This document shows, piece by piece, positions 19,316 to 52,481 of a stretch of 64,000 nucleotides of DNA. A model generated the notes under the pieces. That model had not been told where the DNA came from. It was given only the letters and a program-made list of their open reading frames with translations, and searched no databases. How positions within the stretch are numbered: the stretch's first letter is position 1; each line of letters begins with the position of its first letter. Both the position numbers and the translations under genes were made by a program. Origin of the DNA: an uncultured virus (IMG/VR IMGVR_UViG_3300042691_036566) (lineage: Duplodnaviria; Heunggongvirae; Uroviricota; Caudoviricetes); the IMG/VR virus record IMGVR_UViG_3300042691_036566, positions 1-64,000 of that record. One strand, 5' to 3'.

Positions 19316-20001
19316 TGAGTCTTACAAGCCGCAGAAATAACAAGAAGAAGGAAGTAGAATCCGAAGAGACATCAGAAGATGTCTCAACAGAAAAGACTGT
19401 ACAGAATTTAATAATGTTACCAGGACTAGATGATGCTCAGGGAGGTATCAAGAGTATTGGATTATTTGGTGATATAAACGAAGAAAAGGGTAGTGAAATC
19501 GTATACGCTCTTTTAACAATTTGGAATGAAAATAGAAATAAAGCAAAAATCGAAGAACAGGATAAAAAATCTAAAAAAGAGAAACCAGATCCAATTGAAT
19601 TATACATTAGCACACACGGTGGATCAGCTAGTGATATGTTTGCAATTTATGATATCATGCGTCAAGTCAAAAAGGATATTGATATTTCTACAATCGGAGT
19701 AGGAAAGGTGATGAGTGCTGGTGTTCTTTTATTAGCAGCAGGCAGCAAAGGTAAGAGAAAAATCGGTAAAAATTGTAGAGTGATGCTACATTCTGTTTTG
19801 GGAGGGAGTGAAGGACCAATTCATAGTCTGGAAAATGAGATGAATGAAATTAGATGGACACAGGATCGCTATATCAATGCCCTAATTGCAGAAACTAAAT
19901 TAACACAAACTACAATGAAAAAATTGCTTGAAAAGCATGTTAACATCTATTTATCAGCAGAAGAGGCGGTGAAATACGGAATAGCTGATGAGGTAATCTA
20001 A
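19315..20001 (+). CDS. clpP: ClpP-family serine protease
   Basis: IELYISTHGG, AIYDIM, VMSAG (catalytic Ser), VMLH (His), YLSAEEAVKYGIADEVI. Confidence 0.9.
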   Translation: MSLTSRRNNKKKEVESEETSEDVSTEKTVQNLIMLPGLDDAQGGIKSIGLFGDINEEKGSEIVYALLTIWNENRNKAKIEEQDKKSKKEKPDPIELYISTHGGSASDMFAIYDIMRQVKKDIDISTIGVGKVMSAGVLLLAAGSKGKRKIGKNCRVMLHSVLGGSEGPIHSLENEMNEIRWTQDRYINALIAETKLTQTTMKKLLEKHVNIYLSAEEAVKYGIADEVI

Positions 20002-23532: not shown

Positions 23533-25110
23533 TTGAAAGTATATGATAATGGAACTTCTTTAAATAAAGCAATATTAGATGGAGTCAACAAACTGGCAGA
23601 TGCTGTCAGTTCAACTCTCGGCCCTAAAGGAAGAAACGTAGTAATACATCTTAAGGGTAGAAACCCTATAATTACAAAAGATGGAGTTACCGTAGCTAAA
23701 AATATTGAATATGAAAATCCTTTTGAGAATGTTGGAGCGCAAGTGCTAAAACAAGCTTCTGAGGTTACTGCTATAGAAGCTGGAGATGGAACTACAACTG
23801 CTACTGTCCTAGCTAGAGCAGTTATGCAAAACGCTCAAAAATACATTACAGCCGGAGCAAGCCCAGTAGAACTTAAACGTGGGATGGATAAAGCAGTAAC
23901 TGCGATTGTATCTAGATTGCATCGCATGTCAAAAGAAGTATCTAGTATAGAAGACATAGAACATATCGCAACAATATCTGCCAATGGTGATAAACAGATT
24001 GGTAAACTTATTGCTATGGCTGTTGATAAAGTAGGAAAAGATGGCGCTATTTCAATTGAGGAAGGCAAATCTGTAGATACAACTTTAGATGTTGTTGAGG
24101 GGTTTCAAATTCCATCCGGCTTTGTATCAGCAGAGTTTGTAACTGATCCACGTCGAGGGGCAATGAGATATGAAAATGCTATACTATTAGTAACTGATTA
24201 CTCAATTGACAACCTTGACGATATAATGCCAGCACTGGAAATTGCTGCAAGAGAGAATAAACCTTTTATTATTTTTGCAGAAAATGTAGAGGGACAATCT
24301 TTAGCTGCTATGGTTCTAAACCTTAAAAGAGGCAGCATGAAAGTCGCTGCCATCAAAGCGCCTAAATACGGTGAAGAAAGAAGAAACCTGCTAAAAGATT
24401 TAGCGTTGGCAACAGGTGCGACATTTATTTCTAGAGAAAGTGGTATGTCATTAAAAGAAGTAAAAAGAAGTCATATGGGAAGCTGTAAGACTATTGAATC
24501 TTTGAAAAACTGGACAACGGTAGTCGGCGGCGGCGGAAACTATGAGGAAGTACAAAAAAAGATAGACTCTCTTAAAGCAGAAATTGAACAAAGTAGTGAT
24601 GTAAAAGAGTGTGAATCTATTCAAGATAGAATTACGCGTTTAGTTGCGGGTATTGCAATTATAAGAGTTGGTGGTTCTACGGAAGTAGATATGACTGAAA
24701 GAAAGCATCGCATAGAAGATGCTTTAGAAGCTGTACGCAGCGCACAACAAGAGGGTATTTTACCTGGAGGTGGATTGGCACTATTGAGATGTTCATTTGA
24801 ACTAGAAAAAGAAGTAGAACTGGATAATGAAGATCAAAAATTTGGTGTAGAAATAATTAAAAAAGCCTGTTACGAGCCAATAAAAACACTTTCTAAGAAC
24901 TGCGATGAAAGCCCAGACGTTATAGTTCATCAGGTATTATATATTTCCGATCTCCCTTTGGTTGGTTATGATTTTGTTAGTAGGTCTTATGTTGATTTAA
25001 TTGAAGAAGGTATTGTAGATCCAACAAAAGTTACAAGATGTGCATTACAAAATGCTGTATCTGCTGCCTCAACTTTATTAACAACTTCTCATGCTATTAT
25101 TGAAGTATAA
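23533..25110 (+). CDS. groEL: Chaperonin GroEL (no GGM tail)
   Basis: TLGPKGRNV, ITKDGVTVA, AGDGTTTATVLA, EDALEA, GILPGGG, GIVDPTKV; TTG start. Confidence 0.97.
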   Translation: MKVYDNGTSLNKAILDGVNKLADAVSSTLGPKGRNVVIHLKGRNPIITKDGVTVAKNIEYENPFENVGAQVLKQASEVTAIEAGDGTTTATVLARAVMQNAQKYITAGASPVELKRGMDKAVTAIVSRLHRMSKEVSSIEDIEHIATISANGDKQIGKLIAMAVDKVGKDGAISIEEGKSVDTTLDVVEGFQIPSGFVSAEFVTDPRRGAMRYENAILLVTDYSIDNLDDIMPALEIAARENKPFIIFAENVEGQSLAAMVLNLKRGSMKVAAIKAPKYGEERRNLLKDLALATGATFISRESGMSLKEVKRSHMGSCKTIESLKNWTTVVGGGGNYEEVQKKIDSLKAEIEQSSDVKECESIQDRITRLVAGIAIIRVGGSTEVDMTERKHRIEDALEAVRSAQQEGILPGGGLALLRCSFELEKEVELDNEDQKFGVEIIKKACYEPIKTLSKNCDESPDVIVHQVLYISDLPLVGYDFVSRSYVDLIEEGIVDPTKVTRCALQNAVSAASTLLTTSHAIIEV

Positions 25111-26846: not shown

Positions 26847-27230
26847 ATGGCAATTGGTAATTTAGACGTACTTTTTGATGATGTAACAAAAGCATTTACA
26901 ACACCTCACACATATTATCGAAAACCTCAACACAGAACGCCGGAATATGTACAACATAAAAATGATAATGGATATAGACTTGAAATACCAGCAATTGGTG
27001 CGTCAAAAGACGATGTATCTGTTAAAGTTGTAGATAAAATGCTAAAAATTGTGGTAAAACCTTCTACTGATTCAGCTTATGCAAGACAGTTTGAAGAAAA
27101 CTGGTTAGTTCCTGATAATATTGATAGCGAATCTGTTTCTGCTAAACTTGTAAATGGATTACTGACTGTAATTTTGAATCATAAAGAGCCAGTGACAAAA
27201 AAAATAAATGTTGATGTAGTTGTAAATTAA
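26847..27230 (+). CDS. Small heat-shock protein (Hsp20 / alpha-crystallin)
   Basis: YRLEIPAIGASKDDVSV...F...VPDNID...SAKLVNGLLTV; own promoter and terminator. Confidence 0.9.
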   Translation: MAIGNLDVLFDDVTKAFTTPHTYYRKPQHRTPEYVQHKNDNGYRLEIPAIGASKDDVSVKVVDKMLKIVVKPSTDSAYARQFEENWLVPDNIDSESVSAKLVNGLLTVILNHKEPVTKKINVDVVVN

Positions 27231-28331: not shown

Positions 28332-29351
28332 ATGAAAAATATGAAAATTATTATGGAAAACTGGAGGAAGTTTTCTACGCTAAATGAAGAATTGGATAAA
28401 AAGAAAATTTACGTTTTAGTTGGTCCACCATCTGTTGGAAAATCTACTTGGATTCAAAAAACTTTTGGAAATCAAGATCCATATATTATTAATAGAGATG
28501 ATATTGTAGAGGCAATTGCAGCTGACTATGGATGGACATATGATGATATGTTTATGCTTCCTCCACCAGATGCTAAAGAGGGAGATGTTAGTGAAAAATA
28601 TGGTACAGTGATTAAATCTCCTCCACATGCAGCCTTTAATCCAACCGCCTATGACAAAGTTATTGAGGCAAACGGAAGAGTCTTTGGAAGGTTCAATGGC
28701 AGAGTTCAGGAAGCAAAAGGACAACCAGTTATTGTTGTCGATATGACTAATATGACTCCAGGAGCTAGAAAAGGAGCTTTAAAAGCAATTGAAGGGTCTG
28801 AAAGTGATTATCACAAAGTCGCTGTGGTGTTTAACTTTGAAGGCGCAGAAGATATAATTAAGAGTGTGGCAGCAAAACGCGCAGCCGAAGCAAAAGCAGC
28901 AGGTAAATCAAAAACAATCCCAGAAGCTGCATTTGATAGAATGTTTAAAAGTTTTCAAAAAGTTGATCAAGCCGCAGAAGGTTTTGATGAAGTGGTTTCT
29001 GTTGATAATGTCCCAAGCTTAAAAAAGGTAGCTGATTCCATGAAAGAGAATAAACAAAAAATTACTAAAAAGTATATAAGAACTCTTATAGAGCAAAAAA
29101 TATCCGAAATTACAGATTTTCAAAAAAAACAGCGAGAGAAAGAAAATATTTATGATGATGTTGAAAGTAGATTTGCAGATGAATACCCTCAAATTTATGG
29201 ATTTTTACCTTCCGAGGCAGAATTTGAAAATATGTCAGTAGAAGAATACAAGCAAGCACTAGCAAAAGAAATTCCTGAATATGCAGAAGAGCTAGAATTG
29301 CAAGATATGGCAGATAAAGATAAATATGGTTCTGAAACAGGGGATTTTTAA
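28332..29351 (+). CDS. P-loop kinase (polynucleotide kinase / AAA_33-like) with 'IMENWRKF' leader
   Basis: LVGPPSVGKST, INRDDI, VVDMTN..R, lid Arg and TIPE..FDRM. Confidence 0.75.
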   Translation: MKNMKIIMENWRKFSTLNEELDKKKIYVLVGPPSVGKSTWIQKTFGNQDPYIINRDDIVEAIAADYGWTYDDMFMLPPPDAKEGDVSEKYGTVIKSPPHAAFNPTAYDKVIEANGRVFGRFNGRVQEAKGQPVIVVDMTNMTPGARKGALKAIEGSESDYHKVAVVFNFEGAEDIIKSVAAKRAAEAKAAGKSKTIPEAAFDRMFKSFQKVDQAAEGFDEVVSVDNVPSLKKVADSMKENKQKITKKYIRTLIEQKISEITDFQKKQREKENIYDDVESRFADEYPQIYGFLPSEAEFENMSVEEYKQALAKEIPEYAEELELQDMADKDKYGSETGDF

Positions 29352-29716
29352 TGGATAAGATAATTATTTCACTTATACAAATGGAACAGCAGTTAAGAAT
29401 ATTTCATTGGCAAACAAAATCTTATGCTCGTCACCAAGCTTTTGGTGCTACTTATGATACATTAAGTGGCCTTATAGACAAATATGTTGAAATATGCATG
29501 GGAAAACATGATAGATTTATTTTAGATGAATCTTGTAGTTTGGAGTTAAAAAATTTACAAGAATTAAAACCAATAGAATTTTGTAACGCATGTTGTGAAA
29601 TGTTAATTGGAATCAGTGCTATACTAGATCCTAGTTGCGATAGTGATCTTATGAATATAAGAGATGAAATGTTAGCAGAAGTTAACAAACTAAAGTACTT
29701 ATTAACCTTACAGTAG
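29351..29716 (+). CDS. Ferritin/Dps-like four-helix protein
   Basis: IFHWQT..YARHQAF...YD.L..LIDKYVE...NIRDEM...NKLKYLLTL. Confidence 0.7.
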   Translation: MDKIIISLIQMEQQLRIFHWQTKSYARHQAFGATYDTLSGLIDKYVEICMGKHDRFILDESCSLELKNLQELKPIEFCNACCEMLIGISAILDPSCDSDLMNIRDEMLAEVNKLKYLLTLQ

Positions 29717-29725
29717 GAGAAAAAA

Positions 29726-30346
29726 ATGAAAATTACAGTATCAAAACTCAATCAAATTGTATCAGAAGAAATTAAAAAAGAGTTGGAGCAAGAAGAACTA
29801 TTCGAAGGTTTAAAACAAAACATCGCAGCATTGTTTGCTGGCGCTCTTATGAGCATGGGTTACGGTGCTGCCAATACAGCAGAAGCAGAACCAGTAAAAG
29901 TAACCGTCAAGAATGTTAAAGATGGATCTACTCGTTCAATTGTTGTTGATGATTTAGGTGCAAACGCTTCCGAAGTTAGAGATGTTATGAACGATCTACT
30001 AGATAGTAGATACGGCCCAGGAAAATTTGTAACAGTTGGTGTAAAACCAACATCAGGAGCAGATTTAGGATCTGATGCTGGCTCTGTCAAACCATCAGCC
30101 CCTGCCAAAAAAGCTGGAAGAGGTGAAGTCCTTAAGGTAGATGGAAATGTAGTAACCGTAAAAGTTCCTGTAAGAGGTGGCAGCATGGGATTAGAGTCTG
30201 CTCAAATGGACGCAAGAGCTATGGCTGTTGATGCGGTAAGAGGTAGAGATGTTGGTGGATCCAGAGTATCAAGCGGAAAAGCAAGTACTGTTAGTTCAGA
30301 GGTTAAAGACGGCTTCTTGATTATGAAAGTTAAAGTTGGAGGTTAG
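29726..30346 (+). CDS. Hypothetical protein with MKITVSKLNQIVSEE leader and a hydrophobic segment
   Basis: Leader, then IAALFAGALMSMG and a G/V/S-rich domain. Confidence 0.55.
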   Translation: MKITVSKLNQIVSEEIKKELEQEELFEGLKQNIAALFAGALMSMGYGAANTAEAEPVKVTVKNVKDGSTRSIVVDDLGANASEVRDVMNDLLDSRYGPGKFVTVGVKPTSGADLGSDAGSVKPSAPAKKAGRGEVLKVDGNVVTVKVPVRGGSMGLESAQMDARAMAVDAVRGRDVGGSRVSSGKASTVSSEVKDGFLIMKVKVGG

Positions 30347-30348
30347 TA

Positions 30349-32370
30349 GTGAATATATTTAAATTCAAGAAATGGCTATTAGAAGAAAAAGAAGAATCTA
30401 ATTCTTCTAAAAGAAATTTCTTTGTCTTAATAGGACCGCCAGCTGTAGGAAAATCTAGCTGGATAGAGAACAATGTTAAGGACAATAGAATTATTATATC
30501 TAAAGATGAAATAATAGAGGATGTTATATTTCCAAAATATAATCTAGCAAACAAGGATATTTTTAAGGTTCCAACACAAGATCTTGAAGTTGGTGAAGAG
30601 CATCCAGAAAAAAAGAAACTTGGAAGATTAACAAAATATACAAGATTCAGTAAGAGTAAGGGAAAGGAAGTAGAAGAATTAGCGTTTGAAAACGCTCATG
30701 CTGCTGGTGAAGAATTAAATGCCATATATGATTCAGAATTAAAAAATGCTATTTCTTCTGATGTAAAAAATATTGTAGTAGATGCAATACATATGACTAG
30801 AAGCAATAGAAAAACTACAATTGATTATATATCTGGCAGGGACGATTTTAATATAATTGGTGTTGTATTTCCTTTTAAGGGATATGAAAAACAAATTTTA
30901 AGATCAGCGGAATTAAGAGCAAAAGACTTCCTAGAAAGATACGGTCCAGAATTTGATAGGGGAGTATCTAAATCAGATTACGAAGAAATATATAAAAACT
31001 TTGAAGAACCTTCTAAATCAGAAGGTTTTGATCGATTAATAACATCTAACAGGTTTAAAAAAACAGATAGGGAGATAGGAATTTCTGATGAAACATTCAA
31101 TGAGATGTTAGTCAGAAATACTAAAAATTTATTAGGGGAAGCCACTTTAAGTAATTATTGGAAAATAAGAGCAGATTCAAGATCTAAACACGCGAAAAGA
31201 AAACCAGGAAACAAGCTAGATCTTGAATGGGCACAACTACAACAGGAAAAGTCCAGAAGTATGAATGCAAAGATACATAAAATCTTTGAAAAAGAACTAC
31301 AAGGCACAGAGGAGTTATCAGAGGAGATTTCTGAATTTTTAGAGAAAGTCAAGAAAAAGAGATTAGCTCTAAAGAAAAAAATGCAAGAAAAAAAATTAGC
31401 AAAATTAAAATCTCCAAAAAATTTAAGTAAAAAAAAGTCCTTGCCAAATCCATATAAAGATGCTAAAATAACCTCTAAATATCCGTACAGTAAAGATAGA
31501 ACTGGTGGCGTAGCTAAAGTTTATAGAAAAAGAAGTAAACAAGCTGGCGGCGCGACAATTGCACCGGGCGAATCATTTGGTCCAATTGGAGAAAACCAAT
31601 CTAATCCACTATTTGATTCATTATCGGATATACAAAAAGAAAATTTTTTTAAACTAATTGGCGATGTAGAAGAATATGATATTTTAAAGCTTGGGCAAAG
31701 AAAAAGAACTAAAAATATTCTTAAATATTTTAATTTAAGTTTACAAGATGCCGTTGAGTTAGTAAAAAAATGCCCTGTGTTAAGTAAGCCAATTCAAGAG
31801 TTGTTAACAGCTGGAACAAAAGGTTTTATCTACCTACTAGATAATGGGCATATATTAAAACTATATCAGGATGACTATTCTGGCGGTGGTGATATGTATT
31901 GGTATAAGGGAACAAAAGCAAGAATGTTCTCAAGTGCTGGTAATATTACAGATCTTCCAATATATGACGAGGGTGAAATAAAACTTGATGCTGGAGAGCA
32001 AGTAAATTATGTAGAAATGGCTAGAGTAATTCCATTATCAGATTTTATGGAAGAAACTAGAAGATCTGCAGATGATGCTGAATCTGACTATGAATTGTGT
32101 AAGGATATGATGATAGAAATAGAGCAGAAATATAGTAAAAAGTTTTTTCTTTTTAGCCAAGAAAAGATCGCTTCTATATTTAAAGATTTTATGCAAAAAA
32201 AGAAAATGTATCCAAGTGCTTTAACAAAAAATGAATTTGTGAGTTTAGCAAAGACAATTTATTTGTTTATAAAAACTGGAAATTATTTACATGATTCTCA
32301 TGTAGGAAATATTGGTATACTTCCACAAAGTAATCCATCAAATCCTGTATTTGTAATATTTGATAATTGA
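30349..32370 (+). CDS. Fusion of N-terminal P-loop kinase, basic linker and C-terminal protein-kinase-like (APH/PKL) domain
   Basis: LIGPPAVGKSS/IVVDA (paralog of 28332); C-terminal AGTKGFIY..ILKL..YVEM..LHDSHVGNIG..VIFD. Confidence 0.65.
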   Translation: MNIFKFKKWLLEEKEESNSSKRNFFVLIGPPAVGKSSWIENNVKDNRIIISKDEIIEDVIFPKYNLANKDIFKVPTQDLEVGEEHPEKKKLGRLTKYTRFSKSKGKEVEELAFENAHAAGEELNAIYDSELKNAISSDVKNIVVDAIHMTRSNRKTTIDYISGRDDFNIIGVVFPFKGYEKQILRSAELRAKDFLERYGPEFDRGVSKSDYEEIYKNFEEPSKSEGFDRLITSNRFKKTDREIGISDETFNEMLVRNTKNLLGEATLSNYWKIRADSRSKHAKRKPGNKLDLEWAQLQQEKSRSMNAKIHKIFEKELQGTEELSEEISEFLEKVKKKRLALKKKMQEKKLAKLKSPKNLSKKKSLPNPYKDAKITSKYPYSKDRTGGVAKVYRKRSKQAGGATIAPGESFGPIGENQSNPLFDSLSDIQKENFFKLIGDVEEYDILKLGQRKRTKNILKYFNLSLQDAVELVKKCPVLSKPIQELLTAGTKGFIYLLDNGHILKLYQDDYSGGGDMYWYKGTKARMFSSAGNITDLPIYDEGEIKLDAGEQVNYVEMARVIPLSDFMEETRRSADDAESDYELCKDMMIEIEQKYSKKFFLFSQEKIASIFKDFMQKKKMYPSALTKNEFVSLAKTIYLFIKTGNYLHDSHVGNIGILPQSNPSNPVFVIFDN

Positions 32371-32379
32371 GGAAAAAAT

Positions 32380-32712
32380 ATGAAAATAACCAAAGAATCT
32401 TTAAAAAAGATTATATCTGAAGAAATACAAGAATGTATGGCAGATATGGGAATGTTAAGTGGAGATATGCCATTCACTGGAGGTGGTGTAGTAAAACTAA
32501 AATTAGGAGACTCCGATAAAGAAAGCTACGACTCAGATGGTCGTATGGCTAGAAGTAATGTTTATAACTTAATGAAACACGCCTCAATGCTATCTAAGTT
32601 AGTAAATGATGAAGATGATTTAGAACCTTGGGTTCAAGAGAAAATTGCAGTTGCTACAGAAGCTATAGAGACAGTGGCAGAATATTTAGAATACGAAAAA
32701 ACAAGAGGATAG
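32380..32712 (+). CDS. Hypothetical protein with MKITKESLKKIISEE leader
   Basis: Leader; GRMARS...DLEPWVQEKI...YLEY. Confidence 0.6.
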   Translation: MKITKESLKKIISEEIQECMADMGMLSGDMPFTGGGVVKLKLGDSDKESYDSDGRMARSNVYNLMKHASMLSKLVNDEDDLEPWVQEKIAVATEAIETVAEYLEYEKTRG

Positions 32713-32713
32713 A

Positions 32714-33223
32714 ATGATTAAAATTACCCTAACGGAAAGACGAGAATATTATAATAAATTATCGGTATTTGATTTCGATGGAACTTTATTTAGAAGTCCA
32801 AATAAACCGCAGGGTTATAAAAGAAATTGGTGGGGAGAACTAATATCATTATCTCCTCCTTCTGTACCATTAAAAGGTAATGGATTTTGGATAGATTCCA
32901 CTGTTGATGCCGCAAAAAAAGAATTATCTGACAGAAAAACATTTTGTATCATGCTTACTGGAAGAGTAGATTCTGTTTTTGATGAAAGAATTAGGGATCT
33001 GATAAAATTTAAAGGTCTTAATTTTGATTTTGTTAAATTGAATCCTATGGGTATGGATACAGGAGATTTTAAGACAGAAGAAATAAGAAAAATTTTAAGA
33101 AAACATCCAACAATTAAAAAAATTGAGATGTGGGATGACGAACAGAAAAAGATCGATCTATATACTGATAAATTTTCCTCTCATTATGAATTTATTGCGA
33201 ATAAACTTCCAGATAGAGAGTGA
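32714..33223 (+). CDS. HAD-family phosphatase (RNA-repair-type HAD)
   Basis: VFDFDGTLF, MLTGR, K, EMWDD. Confidence 0.8.
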   Translation: MIKITLTERREYYNKLSVFDFDGTLFRSPNKPQGYKRNWWGELISLSPPSVPLKGNGFWIDSTVDAAKKELSDRKTFCIMLTGRVDSVFDERIRDLIKFKGLNFDFVKLNPMGMDTGDFKTEEIRKILRKHPTIKKIEMWDDEQKKIDLYTDKFSSHYEFIANKLPDRE

Positions 33224-46485: not shown

Positions 46486-46744
46486 AAAAAACGACATGGT
46501 GCCTAAATAAAGTGCTTGACTCCCTCCGCTGCCCGTGGTACAATGTGCGGGTAAGTTTGAGAGAGAAACAGTATCAGAGGTTTGTTATGAAAACGCTTTT
46601 ATCAACATTAAGTTATAAGCGAAATCAATGCAGGGTTGTCGATCCGTCGTTTAAATACGAACCGACCCAAACAAACTTTCTCATACAGAGTTGGCGCTAA
46701 TCCGAAAAAAAACGACATGGCACTGAAAAAAAGTGCTTGACTCC
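46486..46744 (+). repeat. Imperfect direct repeat of a promoter unit (46486-46523 and 46707-46744)
   Basis: AAAAAACGACATGG...AAAGTGCTTGACTCC occurs twice. Confidence 0.8.
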
Positions 46745-46859
46745 GCCCGCCGACTTGTGGTATAATCTACCGGGCGGTTGTGCAGCGTTATGAATGAAAT
46801 TTTTACTCTATCGCTGCTGTTTTTTTCTTCTTGACCGGCACTTTTGCTTGTGCTATAAT
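46516..46859 (+). promoter_or_regulatory. Three tandem sigma70 promoters driving the tRNA/ncRNA operon
   Basis: TTGACT-N17-TACAAT (46516), TTGACT-N18-TATAAT (46737), TTGACC-N17-TATAAT (46831). Confidence 0.8.
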
Positions 46860-46892
46860 GGGCAGGTAATTAAGTGAGAAAGAAAAAAACTT

Positions 46893-46905
46893 TGCTCTTT
46901 AACAA
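46893..46905 (+). promoter_or_regulatory. boxA: rRNA-operon-type boxA antitermination element
   Basis: TGCTCTTTAACAA matches the rrn boxA consensus; lies between the last promoter and the first tRNA. Confidence 0.8.
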
Positions 46906-46942
46906 CTGAATTAAGTATGATATAGTAATTAATGTAAGTTAT

Positions 46943-47033
46943 GCGCCGTCGCATTGGATGCAGGGGAGACTTATAAACTCCTTCCGACAGATTATCGGCC
47001 TTAGTGTGGGTTCGATTCCCTCACGGCGCACCA
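46943..47033 (+). tRNA. tRNA-Ile(UAU), atypical, long variable arm
   Basis: GCGCCGT/ACGGCGC-A-CCA; anticodon loop CTTATAA; GGTTCGATTCC. Confidence 0.75.
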
Positions 47034-47117
47034 TAAGGCAAAGAGATGCCATTGTTGGTTTCCAACAGAAATACTCTGACGGGTTTGCAAGTTCCCTTGA
47101 CAAAAACTTGCCCATAT

Positions 47118-47203
47118 GGGTGTGTGGTGGAATGGTATACACGACAGACTTAAAATCTGTTGCCTTAACAGGCTTGACGGTTCGAGTCCGTCCACACCTA
47201 CCA
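47118..47203 (+). tRNA. tRNA-Leu(UAA)
   Basis: Cloverleaf, loop CTTAAAA, long variable arm, CCA. Confidence 0.95.
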
Positions 47204-47210
47204 ATTTAAT

Positions 47211-47287
47211 GGTTCCGTAGCTCAATTGGATAGAGCAAGTGGCTTCTACCCACTAGGTTGCAGGTTCGACTCCTGCCGGGATCGCCA
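47211..47287 (+). tRNA. tRNA-Arg(UCU)
   Basis: Loop CTTCTAC, CCA. Confidence 0.95.
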
Positions 47288-47302
47288 ATTTAGGAGAGTT
47301 CA

Positions 47303-47503
47303 ATGAATCGTTTTAAGCCGGGTGATCTTGTAACTTGTATCTTCTCAGAAGAGATTATTCAGCCAATGCGAATCGTTGGACCAAATTTGTGGTATGGTAG
47401 TAATAGCGGAGTTTATTATGTAGTCGGTAAGCATAGACGAAATGGTAACGAAGTTACTATAACCCTAACAGAATCTGTACTAAAAGAATATGTTGATCCG
47501 TAG
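47303..47503 (+). CDS. Small SH3/KOW-like protein inside the tRNA cluster
   Basis: AGGAG RBS, FKPGDLV motif; stop codon lies inside tRNA-Asn. Confidence 0.6.
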   Translation: MNRFKPGDLVTCIFSEEIIQPMRIVGPNLWYGSNSGVYYVVGKHRRNGNEVTITLTESVLKEYVDP

Positions 47504-47569
47504 CCAAGCAGGTAAGGCAGCGAGCTGTTAACTCGCCTACCGTAGGTTCGAATCCTACCGGATCAGCCA
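47494..47569 (+). tRNA. tRNA-Asn(GUU)
   Basis: Loop CTGTTAA, G73, CCA. Confidence 0.95.
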
Positions 47570-47575
47570 ATTCAT

Positions 47576-47652
47576 GGGAAATTAGCTCAGTCGGTTAGAG
47601 CACTCGCCTTTTAAGCGATTGGTCGTGAGTTCGAATCTCACATTTCCTACCA
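47576..47652 (+). tRNA. tRNA-Lys(UUU)
   Basis: Loop CTTTTAA, CCA. Confidence 0.95.
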
Positions 47653-47656
47653 TAAC

Positions 47657-47708
47657 GGCCCTTGCCTCTGCCCGTTTAGTCTGTAGACTATTCGGGTACG
47701 CAGGGGTC
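47657..47708 (+). ncRNA. Small bulged-hairpin RNA between tRNAs
   Basis: GGCCCTTGC/GCAGGGGTC, TGCCCG/CGGGTA, TAGTC-TGTA-GACTA. Confidence 0.45.
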
Positions 47709-47717
47709 ATCTTTCAT

Positions 47718-47792
47718 GGCCCTATCGTCTAACGGTTAGGACACAGCCCTTTCAAGGCTGTTACAGCGGTTCAAATCCGCTTAGGGTCACCA
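47718..47792 (+). tRNA. tRNA-Glu(UUC)
   Basis: Loop CTTTCAA, CCA. Confidence 0.95.
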
Positions 47793-47797
47793 ATTAT

Positions 47798-47873
47798 GCT
47801 GCTTTAGCTGATGTGGTCATAGCGGAGGTCTGAAGAGCCTTTGAACTTGGTTCGATTCCAAGGGGCAGCACCA
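47798..47873 (+). tRNA. tRNA-Phe(GAA)
   Basis: Loop CTGAAGA, CCA. Confidence 0.92.
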
Positions 47874-47878
47874 AATAT

Positions 47879-47954
47879 GAATCGGTAACTCAATTGGTAG
47901 AGTAACTGGCTCTTAACCAGTTTGTTGAGGGTTCGATTCCCTCCCGATTCACCA
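47879..47954 (+). tRNA. tRNA-Lys(CUU)
   Basis: Loop CTCTTAA, CCA. Confidence 0.95.
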
Positions 47955-47956
47955 TT

Positions 47957-48270
47957 AGACGAGCGCACATAAGATTCCCCAATATGAGCGGGAATCTTAT
48001 GTGCGGTTCTTGCAGAAGCGAAGGAAGCTTAACTGCAATTAAGCGGTACTGACTCGTCTTTCTTTTTCGGTCTAATCTACCATCTGTGTTTCCTTTCGGG
48101 CAATCAACTCACAGAAAAAAGATTTTGGCTTGGAACTGCCAATGCTTGCGATGGAGCAAAAAGGTTCCACTAACATTAAGAAAGCGAGTGGTTCTCGTAT
48201 AGCGAAAGCTATAAATCAGCCAGCATCGAACAAGTTTCCAGCTTCTTGGCGAAAAAGCTGGACTTTTTTT
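47957..48270 (+). ncRNA. Structured non-coding region (three-way-junction RNA 47957-48059 plus a second hairpin-rich domain)
   Basis: AGACGAG/CTCGTCT closing stem, perfect 16-bp hairpin, TATAGC-GAAA-GCTATA, TCCAGC/GCTGGA followed by T-run. Confidence 0.55.
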
Positions 48271-48295
48271 GGAGACTGTTAAGATAATTAGAAAT

Positions 48296-48382
48296 GGGAG
48301 GTTATACCGTTAGAGGGACGGGGTAGACTGTAAATCTATCGTCCATGGGACTCCGTAGGCGCGACTCCTTCATCTCCCACCA
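48296..48382 (+). tRNA. tRNA-Tyr(GUA), non-canonical D/T loops
   Basis: Loop CTGTAAA, long variable arm, T-loop CGCGACT, CCA. Confidence 0.8.
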
Positions 48383-48386
48383 TAAC

Positions 48387-48463
48387 CGGGGTATAGCACA
48401 GCTTGGTAGTGCGCTTGATTTGGGATCAAGAGGTCGCAGGTTCGAATCCTGCTACCCCGACCA
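48387..48463 (+). tRNA. tRNA-Pro(UGG)
   Basis: C1-G72, loop TTTGGGA, CCA. Confidence 0.95.
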
Positions 48464-48475
48464 ATTTTGTTTTAT

Positions 48476-48550
48476 CGGAACATAGCTCAATGGTAGAGCG
48501 TCTGCTTTACACGCAGAATGTTACAGGTTCAAATCCTGTTGTTCCGACCA
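48476..48550 (+). tRNA. tRNA-Val(UAC)
   Basis: Loop TTTACAC; C1-G72 acceptor; CCA. Confidence 0.9.
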
Positions 48551-48557
48551 AGATCGT

Positions 48558-48634
48558 TGAAACGTAGCTTAACAGGTTAAAGCATCTGTCTCATACGCAG
48601 ATTATTGTGGGTTCGACTCCCACCGTTTCAACCA
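48558..48634 (+). tRNA. tRNA-Met(CAU) (or Ile2 if lysidine-modified)
   Basis: Loop CTCATAC, U1-A72, CCA. Confidence 0.88.
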
Positions 48635-48639
48635 AAAGT

Positions 48640-48715
48640 GTGGACATATCTTAAATGGTTAAAGTACTGGACTGTGACTCCGGCTATACGGGTTCGATTC
48701 CCGTTGTCCACCCCA
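48640..48715 (+). tRNA. tRNA-His(GUG)
   Basis: Loop CTGTGAC, C73, CCA; position -1 is T. Confidence 0.9.
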
Positions 48716-48719
48716 ATTT

Positions 48720-48794
48720 GGCCCTATCGTCTAAAGGTTAGGACAAGAGATTCTCAATCTCTAGATCAGGGTTCAATTCCCTGTAGGGTCACCA
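48720..48794 (+). tRNA. tRNA-Glu(CUC)
   Basis: Loop TTCTCAA, CCA. Confidence 0.93.
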
Positions 48795-48821
48795 AATATG
48801 TTCTAACTACTTGAGGATAAT

Positions 48822-49202
48822 ATGAAGGAAAAGCAGGAAGAAAATAAAATCTATATGATTCGTCGTCGTAAAGATGGTCTTTTTTCATCTGGATCAAGTT
48901 GGCCGTGTTTTGGTCGTCATGGTAAAATGTGGGATTCGTTAAAGACTCTTAACCTACATCTAACCAATGTATACAAAGATAATTATTACGGAAGAAATGC
49001 TGTTCTAAAGCGTGGACAGGATGGAAGATTTAGCACGTTTGACTTTGGTGCATTTGCTGATATGAAGCACAATCCATATCTGAACTGCGATATTGTTGAG
49101 GTTGAACTTAGTTATAACGTCAAGGTAGATATCTTTAATCATCTTGCCCTGCGTTATGTTAAGGATGAAACCCCAGCAGAGGAAACAAAGTCAGAAACGT
49201 AA
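48822..49202 (+). CDS. Hypothetical protein in the tRNA cluster
   Basis: GAGG RBS; YMIRRRKDGLFS..G..W motif. Confidence 0.65.
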   Translation: MKEKQEENKIYMIRRRKDGLFSSGSSWPCFGRHGKMWDSLKTLNLHLTNVYKDNYYGRNAVLKRGQDGRFSTFDFGAFADMKHNPYLNCDIVEVELSYNVKVDIFNHLALRYVKDETPAEETKSET

Positions 49203-49209
49203 GGTTAGT

Positions 49210-49283
49210 GGGTCGTTAGTGTAATGGAAACATAACTGCCTCCAAATCAGTTGACGAGGGTTCGATTCCTTCACGACCTGCCA
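49210..49283 (+). tRNA. tRNA-Trp(CCA)
   Basis: Loop CTCCAAA, G73, CCA. Confidence 0.93.
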
Positions 49284-49287
49284 ACAT

Positions 49288-49364
49288 GGGGATATAACTC
49301 AATTGGAGAGAGTACCAGATTACGAGTCTGGAAGTTGTAGGTTCAACTCCTACTATCCTCGCCA
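49288..49364 (+). tRNA. tRNA-Arg(ACG)
   Basis: Loop TTACGAG, CCA. Confidence 0.93.
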
Positions 49365-49369
49365 TTTGT

Positions 49370-49444
49370 TGGGGAATCGTCTAACGGGCAGGACGGCAGA
49401 CTCTGAATCTGCCTATCTAGGTTCGAATCCTAGTTCTCCAACCA
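49370..49444 (+). tRNA. tRNA-Gln(CUG)
   Basis: U1-A72, loop CTCTGAA, CCA. Confidence 0.95.
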
Positions 49445-49447
49445 ATT

Positions 49448-49663
49448 TGAATCTGCAAAAGATAGATGAATAACTTTAGTGGATGTTTTGCTACTTACAC
49501 CATGCAAACTGACGACTAGGAGTTGCCAACTCTGTTAAGCGGCATCAGAGCAATTAACAAACAAAGCAGCTAGTGTGCAAACAGCGAAGATCGTTTGCCA
49601 TCGACAAGGGTTGAATAGGGCTTGCAAACCCCATTGAAATTCAATCTTTCAATTGCAGATTCA
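49448..49663 (+). ncRNA. Unknown structured RNA, 'GCGAAGA' family copy 1
   Basis: 11-bp closing stem TGAATCTGCAA/TTGCAGATTCA; core CTAGTGT-GCAAAC-AGCGAAGATC-GTTTGC-CATCGACAAG. Confidence 0.7.
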
Positions 49664-49667
49664 TCAT

Positions 49668-49741
49668 GCTTCTATAGTTAAACGGTATAACTCTGCCTTT
49701 GTAACGCAGCGTTCTCAGTTCGATTCTGAGTGGAAGCACCA
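49668..49741 (+). tRNA. tRNA-Thr(UGU)
   Basis: Loop TTTGTAA, CCA. Confidence 0.9.
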
Positions 49742-49791
49742 AATTTTGTCTAACGCGGCCTGCCAGCCGCCACAAATCGTATAGGTGTATT

Positions 49792-50190
49792 ATGGGTTAT
49801 AATGATTTTGAGCCGATGGTGGGCAAAACGATTACTGATGCGCTTATCAACCAGAACCGCGACGTTATGATGTGGAAGGTTGATGGTGTGTGGTATAGCC
49901 TTAACGCCTACGGTGATTGTTGTTCTAATTCATGGTTTGAACATTGTGATAACGCTCTGGTGTTTGACAATGCCAAGTTCCTTGAATACGAGAATGTTGG
50001 CGGGGATTCATGGGAGGACAACTATAACCTTATCCAGGTTAACATGATCAAGGTTAAGACCGATAAGGGTCACTGTACGATTGAATTCCGTAACTCATCA
50101 AACGGCTACTACAGCGGTTGGGTAGAGGTACGCGAGGAACCCTTGGTTATGGAACCGGGTACTGAATTCAAGAAGATTGTAGATTTCTAA
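49792..50190 (+). CDS. Conserved-looking phage hypothetical protein
   Basis: GDCCSNSW...KTDKG...SNGYYSG motif. Confidence 0.7.
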   Translation: MGYNDFEPMVGKTITDALINQNRDVMMWKVDGVWYSLNAYGDCCSNSWFEHCDNALVFDNAKFLEYENVGGDSWEDNYNLIQVNMIKVKTDKGHCTIEFRNSSNGYYSGWVEVREEPLVMEPGTEFKKIVDF

Positions 50191-50199
50191 TAGTAGTAT

Positions 50200-50284
50200 G
50201 GGCAGGTGGCGTAACTGGTAGCCGCGCTGGTCTTAGAAGCCAGTTCCGAAAGGAGTGTCGGTTCGATTCCGACCTTGCCCACCA
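50200..50284 (+). tRNA. tRNA-Leu(UAG)
   Basis: Loop CTTAGAA, long variable arm, CCA. Confidence 0.95.
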
Positions 50285-50289
50285 TTTGA

Positions 50290-50364
50290 TCCGGTATCGT
50301 CTAACTGGCAGGACAGCAGACTTTGAATCTGTGAACGGTGGTTCGAATCCATCTACCGGAACCA
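50290..50364 (+). tRNA. tRNA-Gln(UUG)
   Basis: Loop CTTTGAA, CCA. Confidence 0.95.
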
Positions 50365-50374
50365 AATAGTTGTA

Positions 50375-50718
50375 AACAGCATACGGGAAGTTGGCTTAAG
50401 AGTAGCCATCTTATAATGAGTAGGACGAAATCCTAGGCAGGTGTTAGTTAAGCTGTTTTCCAGCGTGGACAGAGCGAAAGCGTACTGAAAATTGTCTATG
50501 GAAACCCCGATAAACTATAGATGGTTCAAAACCGTAATCAGCCGGGTTAAGTAGGTAAACCACGACTAACTTAATTGTAAATAAATCAGTCCTGCTGGGT
50601 TGGGGAATAGGAGAATGCCCGGCATACAAGCAGAACAGTGCCAAGCGGATGATAACGTGAGGTATGCAAAGTAGCAAGTATGGGTTCCTTTTGGTGTAGT
50701 AACACACCTTATGCTGTT
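50375..50718 (+). ncRNA. Large RNA containing a 23S rRNA H43-H44 (L11-binding / GTPase-associated centre) mimic with a ~270-nt insertion
   Basis: Closing stem AACAGCATA/TATGCTGTT; GGAAGTTGGCTTAAGAGTAGCCATCTTATAATGAG ... GTGTAGTAACACAC aligns to 23S nt 1055-1104. Confidence 0.8.
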
Positions 50719-50726
50719 CTTTTTGT

Positions 50727-50811
50727 GGGGTCATGGTGTAACAGGTAGCCACGCTAGACTCAAAATCTGGTTCCGCAAGGAGTGTCGGTTCGAATCCGAC
50801 TGACCCTACCA
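50727..50811 (+). tRNA. tRNA-Leu(CAA)
   Basis: Loop CTCAAAA, long variable arm, CCA. Confidence 0.95.
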
Positions 50812-50822
50812 AATCTTTTAAT

Positions 50823-50900
50823 GGGGAGTTAGCTTAGTTGGTTTAAAGCACTGGCCTGTCACGCCAGAGATCACGGGTTCAAGTCCCGTACTCCTCGCCA
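50823..50900 (+). tRNA. tRNA-Asp(GUC)
   Basis: Loop CTGTCAC, G73, CCA. Confidence 0.95.
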
Positions 50901-50901
50901 A

Positions 50902-51175
50902 TAACAAAACCTGTCAAGGCTATGCTGAAACTTAGTATCCTCAAACTGATGGGTTACTTTTTGTAGTTAGCTAGATGAATCCCTGGCGTGGGATAATAGG
51001 TGGGTTGGTGATTAAGCCCCCTTGGTTCCCCTAGACTTAGAATCTGGAATGGGCCTAAAAGCTAAAAAATAACTCTAGTGTGGTAACAGCGAAGATAGTT
51101 ACCCATCGAAAAGGACATTTCTTCGATCCCATTGGGGACCATAGTCGAAGTGTCCCTGTTAACTACTTGCTTTGT
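50902..51175 (+). ncRNA. Unknown structured RNA, 'GCGAAGA' family copy 2 (ends approximate)
   Basis: Core CTAGTGT-GGTAAC-AGCGAAGATA-GTTACC-CATCGAAAAG at 51075-51113, then GGACA/TGTCC stem. Confidence 0.7.
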
Positions 51176-51177
51176 GA

Positions 51178-51253
51178 GGGTTCATAGCTTAATTAGTAAA
51201 GCACTCGACTGATAATCGAGAGAGTACAGGTGCAATTCCTGTTGAACCTACCA
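51178..51253 (+). tRNA. tRNA-Ile(GAU)
   Basis: Loop CTGATAA; T-loop TGCAATT; CCA. Confidence 0.9.
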
Positions 51254-51260
51254 ATTTTTT

Positions 51261-51349
51261 GGAAGAATGACCGAGCGGTTTATGGTACTTGTCTAGAAAA
51301 CAAGAGATCCCACAAGGGTCCGTGAGTTCGAATCTCACTTCTTCCTCCA
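51261..51349 (+). tRNA. tRNA-Ser(AGA)
   Basis: CTTGT-CTAGAAA-ACAAG, long variable arm, U73, CCA. Confidence 0.88.
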
Positions 51350-51352
51350 TAT

Positions 51353-51428
51353 GAGGGTATAGCCAAGAGAGTAAGGCAGGAGCCTGCAAAACTCCCAATC
51401 GTAAGTGCGAATCTTACTACCCTCTCCA
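51353..51428 (+). tRNA. tRNA-Cys(GCA)
   Basis: Loop CTGCAAA, U73, T-loop TGCGAAT, CCA. Confidence 0.9.
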
Positions 51429-51436
51429 GTTTTCAT

Positions 51437-51525
51437 GGAAAGTTGCGTGAGCGGCTTAAACGAGCAGTTTGCTAAACTGTCGATCCCTAAAGGGTCCGTT
51501 GGTTCAAATCCAACACTTTCCGCCA
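51437..51525 (+). tRNA. tRNA-Ser(GCU)
   Basis: Loop TTGCTAA, long variable arm, G73, CCA. Confidence 0.95.
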
Positions 51526-51545
51526 ATTTGTACTTAATTCAGAAC

Positions 51546-51763
51546 TAAGTGGATAGGACATATTTTACAGTAAATGGTGTTTTACGATGCTGATGAACAC
51601 CAGTCTAGGTTTTGGGACTTTTTATTTTTACATACATTTATCCCTTCCATGTTCCCATGGAGAGCCTAGAAAGTTATTGAAGTGCATCTAGTGACTTGCC
51701 CGCGAAGAGATGGCAAAACCCGATAAGCTACACATTATTATATTCTAGTGTGGTTTCCACTTA
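51546..51763 (+). ncRNA. Unknown structured RNA, 'GCGAAGA' family copy 3 (more diverged)
   Basis: Closing stem TAAGTGGA/TCCACTTA; core CTAGTGAC-TTGCC-CGCGAAGAGAT-GGCAA-AACCCGATAAG, then GCTACAC/GTGTGGT. Confidence 0.6.
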
Positions 51764-51794
51764 CCCCGCCTATTAAGTTAGGCGGGGTTTTTTT
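51764..51794 (+). terminator. Terminator closing the stable-RNA operon
   Basis: CCCCGCCTA-TTAAGT-TAGGCGGGG-TTTTTTT. Confidence 0.85.
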
Positions 51795-51894
51795 GTTCTA
51801 TCCGTGCAGTTTTTTTCCTGGTTGACTTCACAGCCAGTTTTTGCTATACTATCTGCTGGGTTTGGGCGCTTATACCACTTTTTCAGAGGTTTAT

Positions 51895-52481
51895 ATGATC
51901 CGCGAATGTGTTGAGTGTGGTGGTGAGTTTGATACGTTTAGTAAGGCAAAGCGTGCTGCTGGTGGTTTGTCTACTCACTGTGTTGATTGCAGCGACGAGA
52001 CTACTGTTCGTTATGCTGGTGTGCAGAATTCTGACGGTAAGCAGGCAGGCGTGTCCATTATGCGCTTCAATACGGAAGCTGATCGTGCTGCCTATATTGA
52101 TTTCTGGCAGGTAAACAGCGGTTTCCACAAGGGTAAGTCATGCCAGATTGGTCATGGACTTAAGTCGTCACCCGGTTTTGCTTATCAGACTGTTGCCGTG
52201 TTTGAGGGTAACACCAATCACAAGGGTAAGGCGTAATGCGTGATGTACTGTATATGATTATTTTCATTAACTGTACTATCTTCTTCTTTAACATCTGGAA
52301 CCTCTTTATTCTTCCAAAGATTGAAAGCTGGGTTCTTGATCGTAGGTTTATAAAGGATATGGAGCGTGCAAAACAAGATAGGCATATCAGATTAATGCAA
52401 CAGCTAAAGACGGCTACGTTGTTAGCTAAAAGAAACTCAGAAAGGCTCCGTAAGCACAATGAGCGGAACAGGAAGGCATAA
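51895..52481 (+). CDS. Zn-ribbon protein (51895-52236) and small membrane protein (52236-52481)
   Basis: CVEC...CVDC; hydrophobic N-terminus; promoter TTGACT-N17-TATACT at 51822. Confidence 0.6.

Follow-up and report, generated by a model that had tools for sequence, protein, structure and literature searches.

Since T4 it has been known that phage tRNA clusters can conceal stable RNAs that are not tRNAs and whose purpose is unexplained. Some of the bacterial Y RNA-like (YrlA) RNAs are also phage-encoded and lie near tRNAs. The closest described genes in setting are species 1 (rnaC, 139 nt) and species 2 (rnaD, 119 nt) of T4, non-tRNA genes of the phage tRNA cluster that lie on the tRNA strand and abut tRNAs (annotation of NC_000866), and one report describes GOLLD and ROOL as large, ornate phage or prophage RNAs of unknown function that are often near tRNAs (10.1101/2024.12.08.627333). 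Here we describe three structured RNAs encoded among the tRNA genes of an uncultured virus of the Caudoviricetes, in a stretch of 64,000 nucleotides (the window) that comprises positions 1 to 64,000 of IMG/VR record IMGVR_UViG_3300042691_036566. The three blocks are diverged paralogues of one structured RNA family that is new to Rfam; there are three paralogues in this one genome and six sequence types overall. The family is new and its setting is ordinary.

The source record has 126,749 bases and is estimated to be ~70% complete, the window being its first 64 kb; a complete record of 187,450 bases (G001) is identical to this phage across the 6 kb compared. The phage encodes a DnaE-type polymerase, DnaB, ribonucleotide reductase and GroEL, and the nearest cultured phages are distant (best tblastn identity of the polymerase ~30%). 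Twenty-four tRNA genes, called concordantly by ARAGORN and Rfam, lie between 47118 and 51525, all on the + strand; they are mostly spaced 4–12 nt apart with a few long gaps, and all three RNA copies occupy gaps of this operon that are poor in open reading frames (ORFs). DNA contigs from sequencing runs X2, X3 and X4, which belong to three studies, are identical to the window over parts of copies 1–3.

The copies are recognised by a repeated core. An earlier note on this DNA, made from the letters alone, had placed core strings at 49570, 51075 and 51688, and pattern counts bear this out: CTAGTG-N(4–12)-GCGAAGA is found at these three positions, all on the + strand, against 0.01 matches expected in the window, and GCGAAGA-N(8–20)-CGANAAG picks out the same three sites against 0.00 expected. 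A covariance model of the 51-nt core (R1) scores copy 2 at 63.8 bits, copy 1 at 61.9 and copy 3 at 56.9, and the runner-up site in the window, with filters off, reaches 13.7 bits (E 0.27). None of the ORFs that touch the three blocks is longer than 56 aa.

At the gathering score, Rfam 15 (4227 families) gives 24 matches in the window, all of them tRNAs and none on the three copies. With E raised to 10 across 46800–52000, every match to the blocks lies well under its cut-off (E 0.98–7.1): PyrR at 24.1 bits (cut-off 54), ncr1575 at 22.2 (60), GcvB at 17.3 (42), CRISPR-DR25 at 21.5 (36) and mir-2833 at 20.7 (65), together with three terminator-like sRNA models at 16.6–19.7 bits that lie over a real terminator. 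The earlier note had asked for an Rfam search as a check on novelty; no family matches, and novelty stands. Among the papers listed by literature searches on structured or stable RNAs in phage tRNA clusters, none describes this family. PMC10690425 presents a catalogue of ~10,000 candidate viral structured RNAs; the core strings are not found in six text files of its supplement, and may be present in three other files that lay outside the search.

A common plan was derived by comparing the copies with the relatives described below and by refolding with the conserved strands held single-stranded. In order, it consists of P1, J1, P2, J2, P3, J3, P4, a linker and P1′. P1 is a closing stem of 8–12 bp, and J1 (UAG-R) follows immediately 3′ of the last pair of its 5′ strand, reading UAGAUGAAU in copies 1 and 2 and UAGGACAUA in copy 3. 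P2 is a variable domain of one to three hairpins, and J2 reads CUAGUG-N. P3 has 5–6 bp and a purine-rich loop of 9–11 nt in all members (10–11 nt in the window, N-GCGAAGA-NN). J3 reads Y-N-Y-C-G-A-N-A-A-G; P4 starts at its final G (or AG), and a linker of 0–6 nt leads to the 3′ strand of P1. J1 is a conserved upstream element that the earlier note had overlooked. In the window the 9-mer UAGAUGAAU occurs 5 times (1.65 expected) and is no rarity; its significance lies in its position directly after P1. The parts of the three copies are as follows.

49448–49663 (+): copy 1, whole RNA, 216 nt from P1 to P1′, between tRNA-Gln(ctg) and tRNA-Thr(tgt)
49448–49458 with 49653–49663 (+): copy 1 P1, 5′ strand given first, mean pair probability 0.97
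49463–49471 (+): copy 1 J1, UAGAUGAAU; GAUG (49465–68) can pair with CAUC (49599–602), a proposed helix Px
49472–49569 (+): copy 1 P2 domain, closing helix 49521–26 with 49566–71, probability 0.84
49570–49608 (+): copy 1 core; J2 CUAGUGU 49570–76, P3 49577–82 with 49593–98, loop AGCGAAGAUC 49583–92, CAUC-GACAAG 49599–608
49609–49646 (+): copy 1 P4 arm, best read as 49609–16 with 49639–46 around an inner hairpin
50963–51166 (+): copy 2, whole RNA, 204 nt, between tRNA-Asp(gtc) and tRNA-Ile(gat)
50963–71 with 51158–66 (+): copy 2 P1, followed by J1 UAGAUGAAU at 50972–80
50981–51074 (+): copy 2 P2 domain, three hairpins (50979–83 with 50990–94, 50998–51022, 51024–55)
51075–51113 (+): copy 2 core; CUAGUGU 51075–81, P3 51082–87 with 51098–103, loop AGCGAAGAUA 51088–97, CAUC-GAAAAG 51104–13
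51113–51155 (+): copy 2 P4 arm, 51113–21 with 51147–55, inner hairpin 51127–30 with 51135–38
51546–51763 (+): copy 3, whole RNA, 218 nt, the operon's last gene, after tRNA-Ser(gct)
51546–53 with 51756–63 (+): copy 3 P1, followed by J1 UAGGACAUA at 51554–62
51688–51727 (+): copy 3 core; CUAGUGAC 51688–95, P3 51696–700 with 51712–16, loop CGCGAAGAGAU 51701–11, AACC-CGAUAAG 51717–27
51726–33 with 51748–55 (+): copy 3 P4 hairpin, probability 0.84

The closing stem of copy 1 starts 3 nt past tRNA-Gln and ends 4 nt short of tRNA-Thr, and its P1 duplex has an energy of −10.2 kcal/mol (shuffles, −4.8 ± 1.6). Several of the structural claims made earlier can be judged from this list. P3 does change in sequence while pairing is kept (6, 6 and 5 bp in copies 1, 2 and 3), and a helix immediately after CGANAA is seen in every copy. 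Terminal closing stems had been noticed in copies 1 and 3, where they are present; copy 2 has one too. Measured between the outer ends of their closing stems, the RNAs are 216, 204 and 218 nt long, not the 220–270 nt first suggested. The helix said to end just before TAGTG is found in copy 1 (49521–26 with 49566–71); that of copy 3 ends 9 nt earlier and copy 2 has none. The upstream letters AAA(C)TGR are there, within P2 in copies 1 and 3 and outside P1 in copy 2, but their proposed pairing with the core (YCG) is no better than chance.

Relatives were sought with patterns, with the core model and through the phage polymerase. Among metagenome contigs a pattern scan gave 102 stretches, two of which are true members (L112 and L068); these contigs are 92.2% and 92.9% identical to the window over ~1.2 kb, and copies 1 and 2 occupy the same places among the tRNAs as in the window. 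In IMG/VR the strict exact pattern gave 36 stretches, with the hairpin formed at the three sites of G001 only, and a relaxed pattern gave 22, again with G001 only. One genome from each of 185,579 prokaryote species yielded 65 stretches and no true member; the best stems there (L238 and L279) lie in GC-rich, apparently coding DNA without tRNAs and were rejected, as was the metagenome stretch L130, with an 8-bp stem in GC-rich DNA without tRNAs. A blastn search in distant mode with 49300–51900 against 50,697 GenBank phage records matched 95 records, and the best 40 rows all fall on tRNA genes.

The polymerase, aligned with that of a 72% relative, found 22 loci in IMG/VR, 16 of them at 69–81% identity. 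Across 19 records of polymerase relatives R1 has one clear match, in G005 (81% polymerase identity; 26 bits, E 1.6e-4). With filters off, R1 finds eight matches in tRNA regions: the three copies in G001, two near-identical copies in L112 and L068, a fourth type, the G005 copy (26.0 bits, E 1e-4) and a borderline candidate in G016 (72% polymerase identity; 17.9 bits, E 0.017). The fourth type (L112 137–187, minus strand; 31.3 bits, E 4e-6) is 144 nt long and lies behind an extra tRNA-His, at the place of window ORF 49792–50190. The G005 copy is 206 nt and stands directly before tRNA-Ile(gat), like copy 2, and the G016 candidate, of 280 nt, is flanked by tRNA-Arg and tRNA-Asn.

The fourth type and the G005 and G016 members are all in tRNA arrays and all have the full plan. 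Their J1 reads UAGGUGAAU, UAGGUAAAA or UAGGUAAUA, their J2 CUAGUU, CUAAGU or CUAUCA, their P3 loop GCGAAGA, GCUAAGA or CGAUAAGG, and their J3 CGACAAA, CAAAAAG or CGAAAAG; in G016 the loop has CGAUAAG, letters that recur in J3 of copy 3. A second covariance model (R2) was trained on the eight R1 matches, and its scores on its own training sequences carry no weight; it finds no further member, either in the 19 whole records or, with filters off, in the array loci. A descriptor (CTA, 3–6 nt, a 5–6-bp stem with an AAG-containing loop, then C-R-A-N-A-A-R) finds known members only in ~170 kb of real sequence, and 20 shuffles gave 0–3 sites each. Used as baits for further relatives, ORF 49792–50190 found only G003, with no tRNAs nearby, and ORF 48822–49202, alone or aligned with its G005 homologue, found only G001 and G005. 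Within reach of these searches the family is restricted to part of one clade of uncultivated phages. The earlier note had said that a lack of homologues and covariation outside this genome would count against the family; both are found, in a narrow clade only.

The arrays themselves differ between close strains. Compared with window positions 49668–50200 and 51253–51440, the array of L112 and L068 has an extra tRNA-His after tRNA-Thr, an extra tRNA-Ala before tRNA-Leu(tag), and a tRNA-Ser(tga) between tRNA-Ser(aga) and tRNA-Cys. ORF 49792–50190 is a DUF7448 ORF, and in the 92% relative it is replaced by the fourth RNA type. These extra tRNAs and this swap indicate that the array has been reshuffled between close strains.

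P3 is supported by covariation. In an alignment of seven distinct sequences that was fitted to the model, 41 of 42 cells are paired; five of the six pairs have changed on both sides (15 cells), the covariation score is reached by none of 500 shuffles, and slid controls show 22–60% pairing. For P1, the 12 nt preceding UAG and the 3′ end of the RNA form a duplex of −9.9 to −15.9 kcal/mol in all six types (shuffles, −3.7 to −6.8), an energy matched by at most 4% of 300 shuffles in every type; of six partners, the cognate one ranks first in four of the six rows. An alignment of eight full-length sequences with MAFFT misaligned P1, J1 and the core of copy 3 and was set aside.

Variation among strains points the same way. 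We compared the window with its 92% relatives (L112 and L068) and with contigs of run X5 at 80% likeness, and all nine substitutions in P1, Px, P3 and P4 (A49466>G in copy 1; 51116, 51117, 51120 with 51148, and 51150 in copy 2; 51717, 51752 and 51763 in copy 3) retain or create pairs; against this count, two strain changes (51051 and 51575) break the end pair of predicted P2 sub-helices. In copy 1, A49466>G in the 92% relative turns an A-U pair of Px into G.U. All but two of the differences in copy 1 from that relative fall within 49473–49556 of the P2 domain, and its final 110 nt, from J2 to P1′, are unaltered although the region as a whole is ~92% identical. P4 of copy 2 shows one change on both sides (U-A to C-G at 51120 with 51148), three compatible changes on one side (51116, 51117 and 51150) and no broken pair; run X5 has the same letters there as the 92% relative and is probably the same strain type. 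The first P2 hairpin of copy 2 changes from CCC/GGG to GGC/GCC in the relative, which is compensatory. In copy 3 of run X5, A51717>G adds the missing sixth pair of P3 (with C51695), G51752>A makes a U.G pair of P4 into U-A, A51763>G makes a U-A pair of P1 into U.G, and G51704>A alters the loop motif. Given helices supported by covariation, homologues in related phages and the lack of a convincing ORF, the description of the blocks as paralogous structured RNAs with a conserved junction core holds.

One further helix is plausible. In Px, nucleotides 3–6 of J1 would pair with the 4 nt preceding GANAAG: GAUG with CAUC in copies 1 and 2, GGUG with CAUC in the strain variant of copy 1, GGUA with UGCC in the fourth type and GGUA with UACC in G016, each of these being a full 4 bp. 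Two positions covary (A-U with G-C, and G-C with A-U). If Px is real, the RNA would contain two stacked three-way junctions, P1/Px/P4 and Px/P2/P3, with P3 stacked directly on Px, and the conserved UA, CUAGUG and GANAA would be the joining strands.

A role for these RNAs can be proposed from sequence and setting. We give a probability of about one in two to the reading that they are stable, trans-acting RNAs released together with the tRNAs, and a lower one to any specific partner. Transcription would run from promoters near 46.5–46.9 kb through the terminator at 51763–51797. The flanking signals and one neighbouring hairpin, in which a relative has one G.U changed to A-U, are as follows.

46516–46544, 46737–46766 and 46831–46859 (+): three strong sigma-70-like promoter sites upstream of the operon, 10–11 of 12 hexamer positions matched, each with TG before the −10 hexamer, as consensus matches alone
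50908–50955 (+): separate hairpin between tRNA-Asp and copy 2, outside the closing stem of copy 2
51763–51797 (+): intrinsic terminator, 10-bp GC-rich stem and T run, abutting P1 of copy 3
51822–51850 (+): promoter-like site after the terminator, a consensus match

By analogy with established tRNA processing, the RNAs would be released as by-products of host tRNA-processing nucleases: the cut that RNase P makes at the 5′ end of the following tRNA would free one side, and 3′ trimming behind the preceding tRNA the other. P1 would close the released RNA and protect both of its ends. The RNA would then act in trans, its rigid junction core presenting a binding surface made up of two similar purine-rich motifs, the P3 loop and the CGANAAG strand. 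The partner may be a protein or RNA of host or phage, for which the RNA would serve as decoy, sponge or scaffold, and the three copies may provide a higher dosage or may differ via P2. The conservation of the junction and of the two purine-rich motifs fits a binding surface better than a mere spacer.

The distribution of genes was examined for such a partner by comparing 285 ORFs of this phage with G005 and G016, in which the RNA is present, and with G009, G014 and G018, in which it is absent. Only two tandem paralogous ORFs fit the presence of the RNA (G000 71209–72147 and 72154–73005, in L155:7209–9005; 25–35% identity). They encode 312 and 283 aa and have no Pfam family, and their look-alikes in the Atlas are phage proteins that hint weakly at a protein-kinase-like fold. 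Since this comparison involves six genomes, two of them under half complete, the co-occurrence is too thin to name a partner.

Several observations weigh against this explanation, in its structural or its functional part. Three near-complete relatives with tRNA arrays, G009 (92% complete), G014 (89%) and G018 (96%), have no recognisable copy, and the RNA is thus dispensable for this phage group. A scan of 50 window proteins (the window has 113 ORFs of 70 aa or more) revealed no TROVE or other RNA-binding family, and none of the sequencing runs listed as containing the stretch is an RNA run. The G016 member is borderline in score, and R2 was trained on it. Whole-molecule fold energies are modest relative to shuffles (z −2.85, −2.06 and −1.72 for copies 1–3). 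P4 is ambiguous in copy 1 and G005; in copy 1 it can also be drawn as 49608–12 with 49627–31, and an unconstrained fold pairs 49639–47 with J1. Px has just 2–3 bp in copy 3 and G005, and its covariation is thin: non-cognate strands likewise give 3–4 pairs, because both strands are conserved, and Px is therefore graded plausible only.

Among other explanations, the one that survives best, though it is distinctly unlikely, is that the blocks are passive processing or insulating spacers—providing nuclease entry, tRNA protection or spacing for folding—that are then degraded and have no role in trans. They do always lie among tRNAs, with the closing stem abutting tRNA ends, and related phages manage without them. 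Spacers, however, would not need to preserve junction letters or a loop motif among copies with fully diverged stems, and most tRNAs of the same operon are 4–12 nt apart without such a block.

We consider it improbable that the family represents a new RNA catalyst, self-cleaving or of another kind, in which the joining strands of the junction would build an active site for cleaving the polycistronic precursor next to the tRNAs. As in small ribozymes, the conserved letters are concentrated in the junction strands and a single loop, the stems being free to vary, and the smallest member has merely 144 nt. But no Rfam ribozyme family matches at E up to 10, the core varies (CUAGUG, CUAGUU, CUAAGU, CUAUCA; GCGAAGA, GCUAAGA, GCAAAGA) beyond the usual tolerance of a catalytic core, and RNase P already separates such transcripts.

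A sensor RNA, whose junction core would act as an aptamer and bind a small ligand or a tRNA (perhaps at the elbow), possibly with a switch between two folds, appears very doubtful. A multi-helix junction with conserved unpaired purines may recall riboswitch aptamers, and the tRNA context would suit a tRNA binder, but there is no downstream gene or expression platform: tRNAs follow copies 1 and 2 and the terminator follows copy 3. One alternative pairing, of a P2 or leader segment (including AAACTGR) with the 3′ strands of P3 and Px, was tested against shuffles and non-cognate partners; the fraction of shuffles as good is 0.51, 0.03, 0.17, 0.06, 0.94 and 0.64 in the six types, no better than shuffles in five of them, and at this chance level the switch idea was dropped.

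Least probable of all is a selfish, cassette-like element that recombines within and between tRNA arrays with no benefit to the phage: copy number and position do vary among close relatives, the fourth type and tRNA-His replace ORF 49792–50190, the distribution among relatives is patchy and one run X5 contig joins the end of tRNA-Ser(gct) to copy-1-like sequence, but that joint comes from a single contig of low depth, matched at 80% likeness, no homing endonuclease, integrase or target duplication is seen in association, and purifying selection on the core with compensatory changes in the stems indicates function at the RNA level.

A bolder reading is that the RNAs are themselves active and make up a new functional class in phages, either as a self-cleaving or ligating ribozyme or as a decoy that, in the course of infection, would capture a host tRNA-directed nuclease or RNA-processing enzyme, hypervariable P2 then being engaged in an arms race. 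This is unlikely; if true, it would give a function to the orphan RNAs of phage tRNA operons. In any case the family is a compact, well-defined candidate (144–218 nt) that is directly testable in vitro, and it is missing from Rfam.

The array contains other elements outside this family. At its head, 46940–47030 (+) is a tRNA-like gene in which a good T-arm and an acceptor stem can be recognised, with UAU in the anticodon region; its sole match is a weak one to tRNA-Sec (24.5 bits, cut-off 47), and in four relatives ARAGORN calls an 86–91-nt 'tRNA-Ile(tat)' that opens the array stretch examined. A cloverleaf-like RNA lies at 48296–48382 (+); its acceptor stem has 7 bp, its anticodon loop reads GUA (Tyr), its extra arm is long and its CCA is encoded. 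It is without a canonical T-loop and is uncalled by ARAGORN and the Rfam tRNA model, and a tRNA-Tyr(gta) is called in the array of one relative. Two ORF-poor blocks are also present. The first, of 341 nt at 47955–48295 (+) between tRNA-Lys(ctt) and the Tyr-like RNA, folds strongly (z −4.64; none of 100 shuffles as good) and has a long near-perfect 5′ hairpin, a GAAA-capped hairpin and a terminator-like hairpin near 48232–48270. The second, of 362 nt at 50365–50726 (+) between tRNA-Gln(ttg) and tRNA-Leu(caa), is retained at the same position in the 93% relative L068, and its fold energy is no better than that of shuffles (z −0.71). By eye the two blocks resemble divergent copies of the family, but R1 with filters off matches neither. 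Another conserved, strongly folded non-tRNA element, distinct from the family of copies 1–3, is common to the arrays of G005 (L186:2045–2204) and G009 (L187:4019–4403); it starts GACUAUGCGGGCU and ends ACCCCGCAUAAUG.

Elsewhere in the window, an RNA-repair-like set lies at 28332–33223 (+), with an AAA_33 kinase (28332–29351), a 673-aa protein with a kinase-like N-terminus (30349–32370, +) and the HAD domain of 'Swiss Army Knife' RNA repair proteins (32714–33223, +). The phage also has its own GroEL, ClpP-like protease and Hsp20 (23533–25110, 19315–20001 and 26847–27230, all +).

Set beside described RNAs and motifs, the family shows partial likenesses. The hammerhead core, like the form proposed with Px, has a three-way junction and a conserved, G/A-rich 7-nt joining strand that starts with CU, its consensus being CUGANGA. 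The letters and strand lengths do not fit, however: CUAGUGU stands in the place of CUGANGA, there is no GAA strand between P3 and Px and no single H strand, and there is no Rfam match to the hammerhead at E up to 10. The letters GCGAAGA are those of the bulged strand of the Kt-7 kink-turn. In a Kt-7-like kink-turn a bulged strand (C-helix, 3-nt bulge and GA) faces a partner strand (GA and the complement of the C-helix), whereas GCGAAGA here is inside a 10–11-nt hairpin loop without a partner strand, and its third letter is G, U or A across members.

GOLLD and ROOL resemble copies 1–3 in being phage-borne, ornate and tRNA-adjacent. At 500–800 nt they are 2–4 times larger, copies 1–3 have no Rfam match to them, and for the formation of a cage no self-complementary loop conserved across copies 1–3 is seen. 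With YrlA (RF02553) the likeness is a long closing stem of 5′ and 3′ ends around a multi-branched body. The RF02553 matches in the region are true tRNAs only (18.3–27.6 bits, gathering score 69), and copies 1–3 have no tRNA-like module. YrlA needs a Ro60 partner; the 50 ORFs scanned include no TROVE domain, and the rest of the 187-kb genome lies outside that Pfam scan.

The T4 RNAs remain the nearest comparison. R2 has no match in T4 70908–71171, and its best score in the 6-kb locus, at most 7.9 bits, falls elsewhere. Species 1 and 2 end in a tRNA-like T-arm (GGGTTCGAATCCC-type) and an acceptor end, whereas copies 1–3 have no T-loop and end in a plain closing stem; the T4 RNAs are also shorter than copies 1–3 (204–218 nt), which form three paralogues. 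Common to both is location in a phage tRNA cluster, on the tRNA strand.

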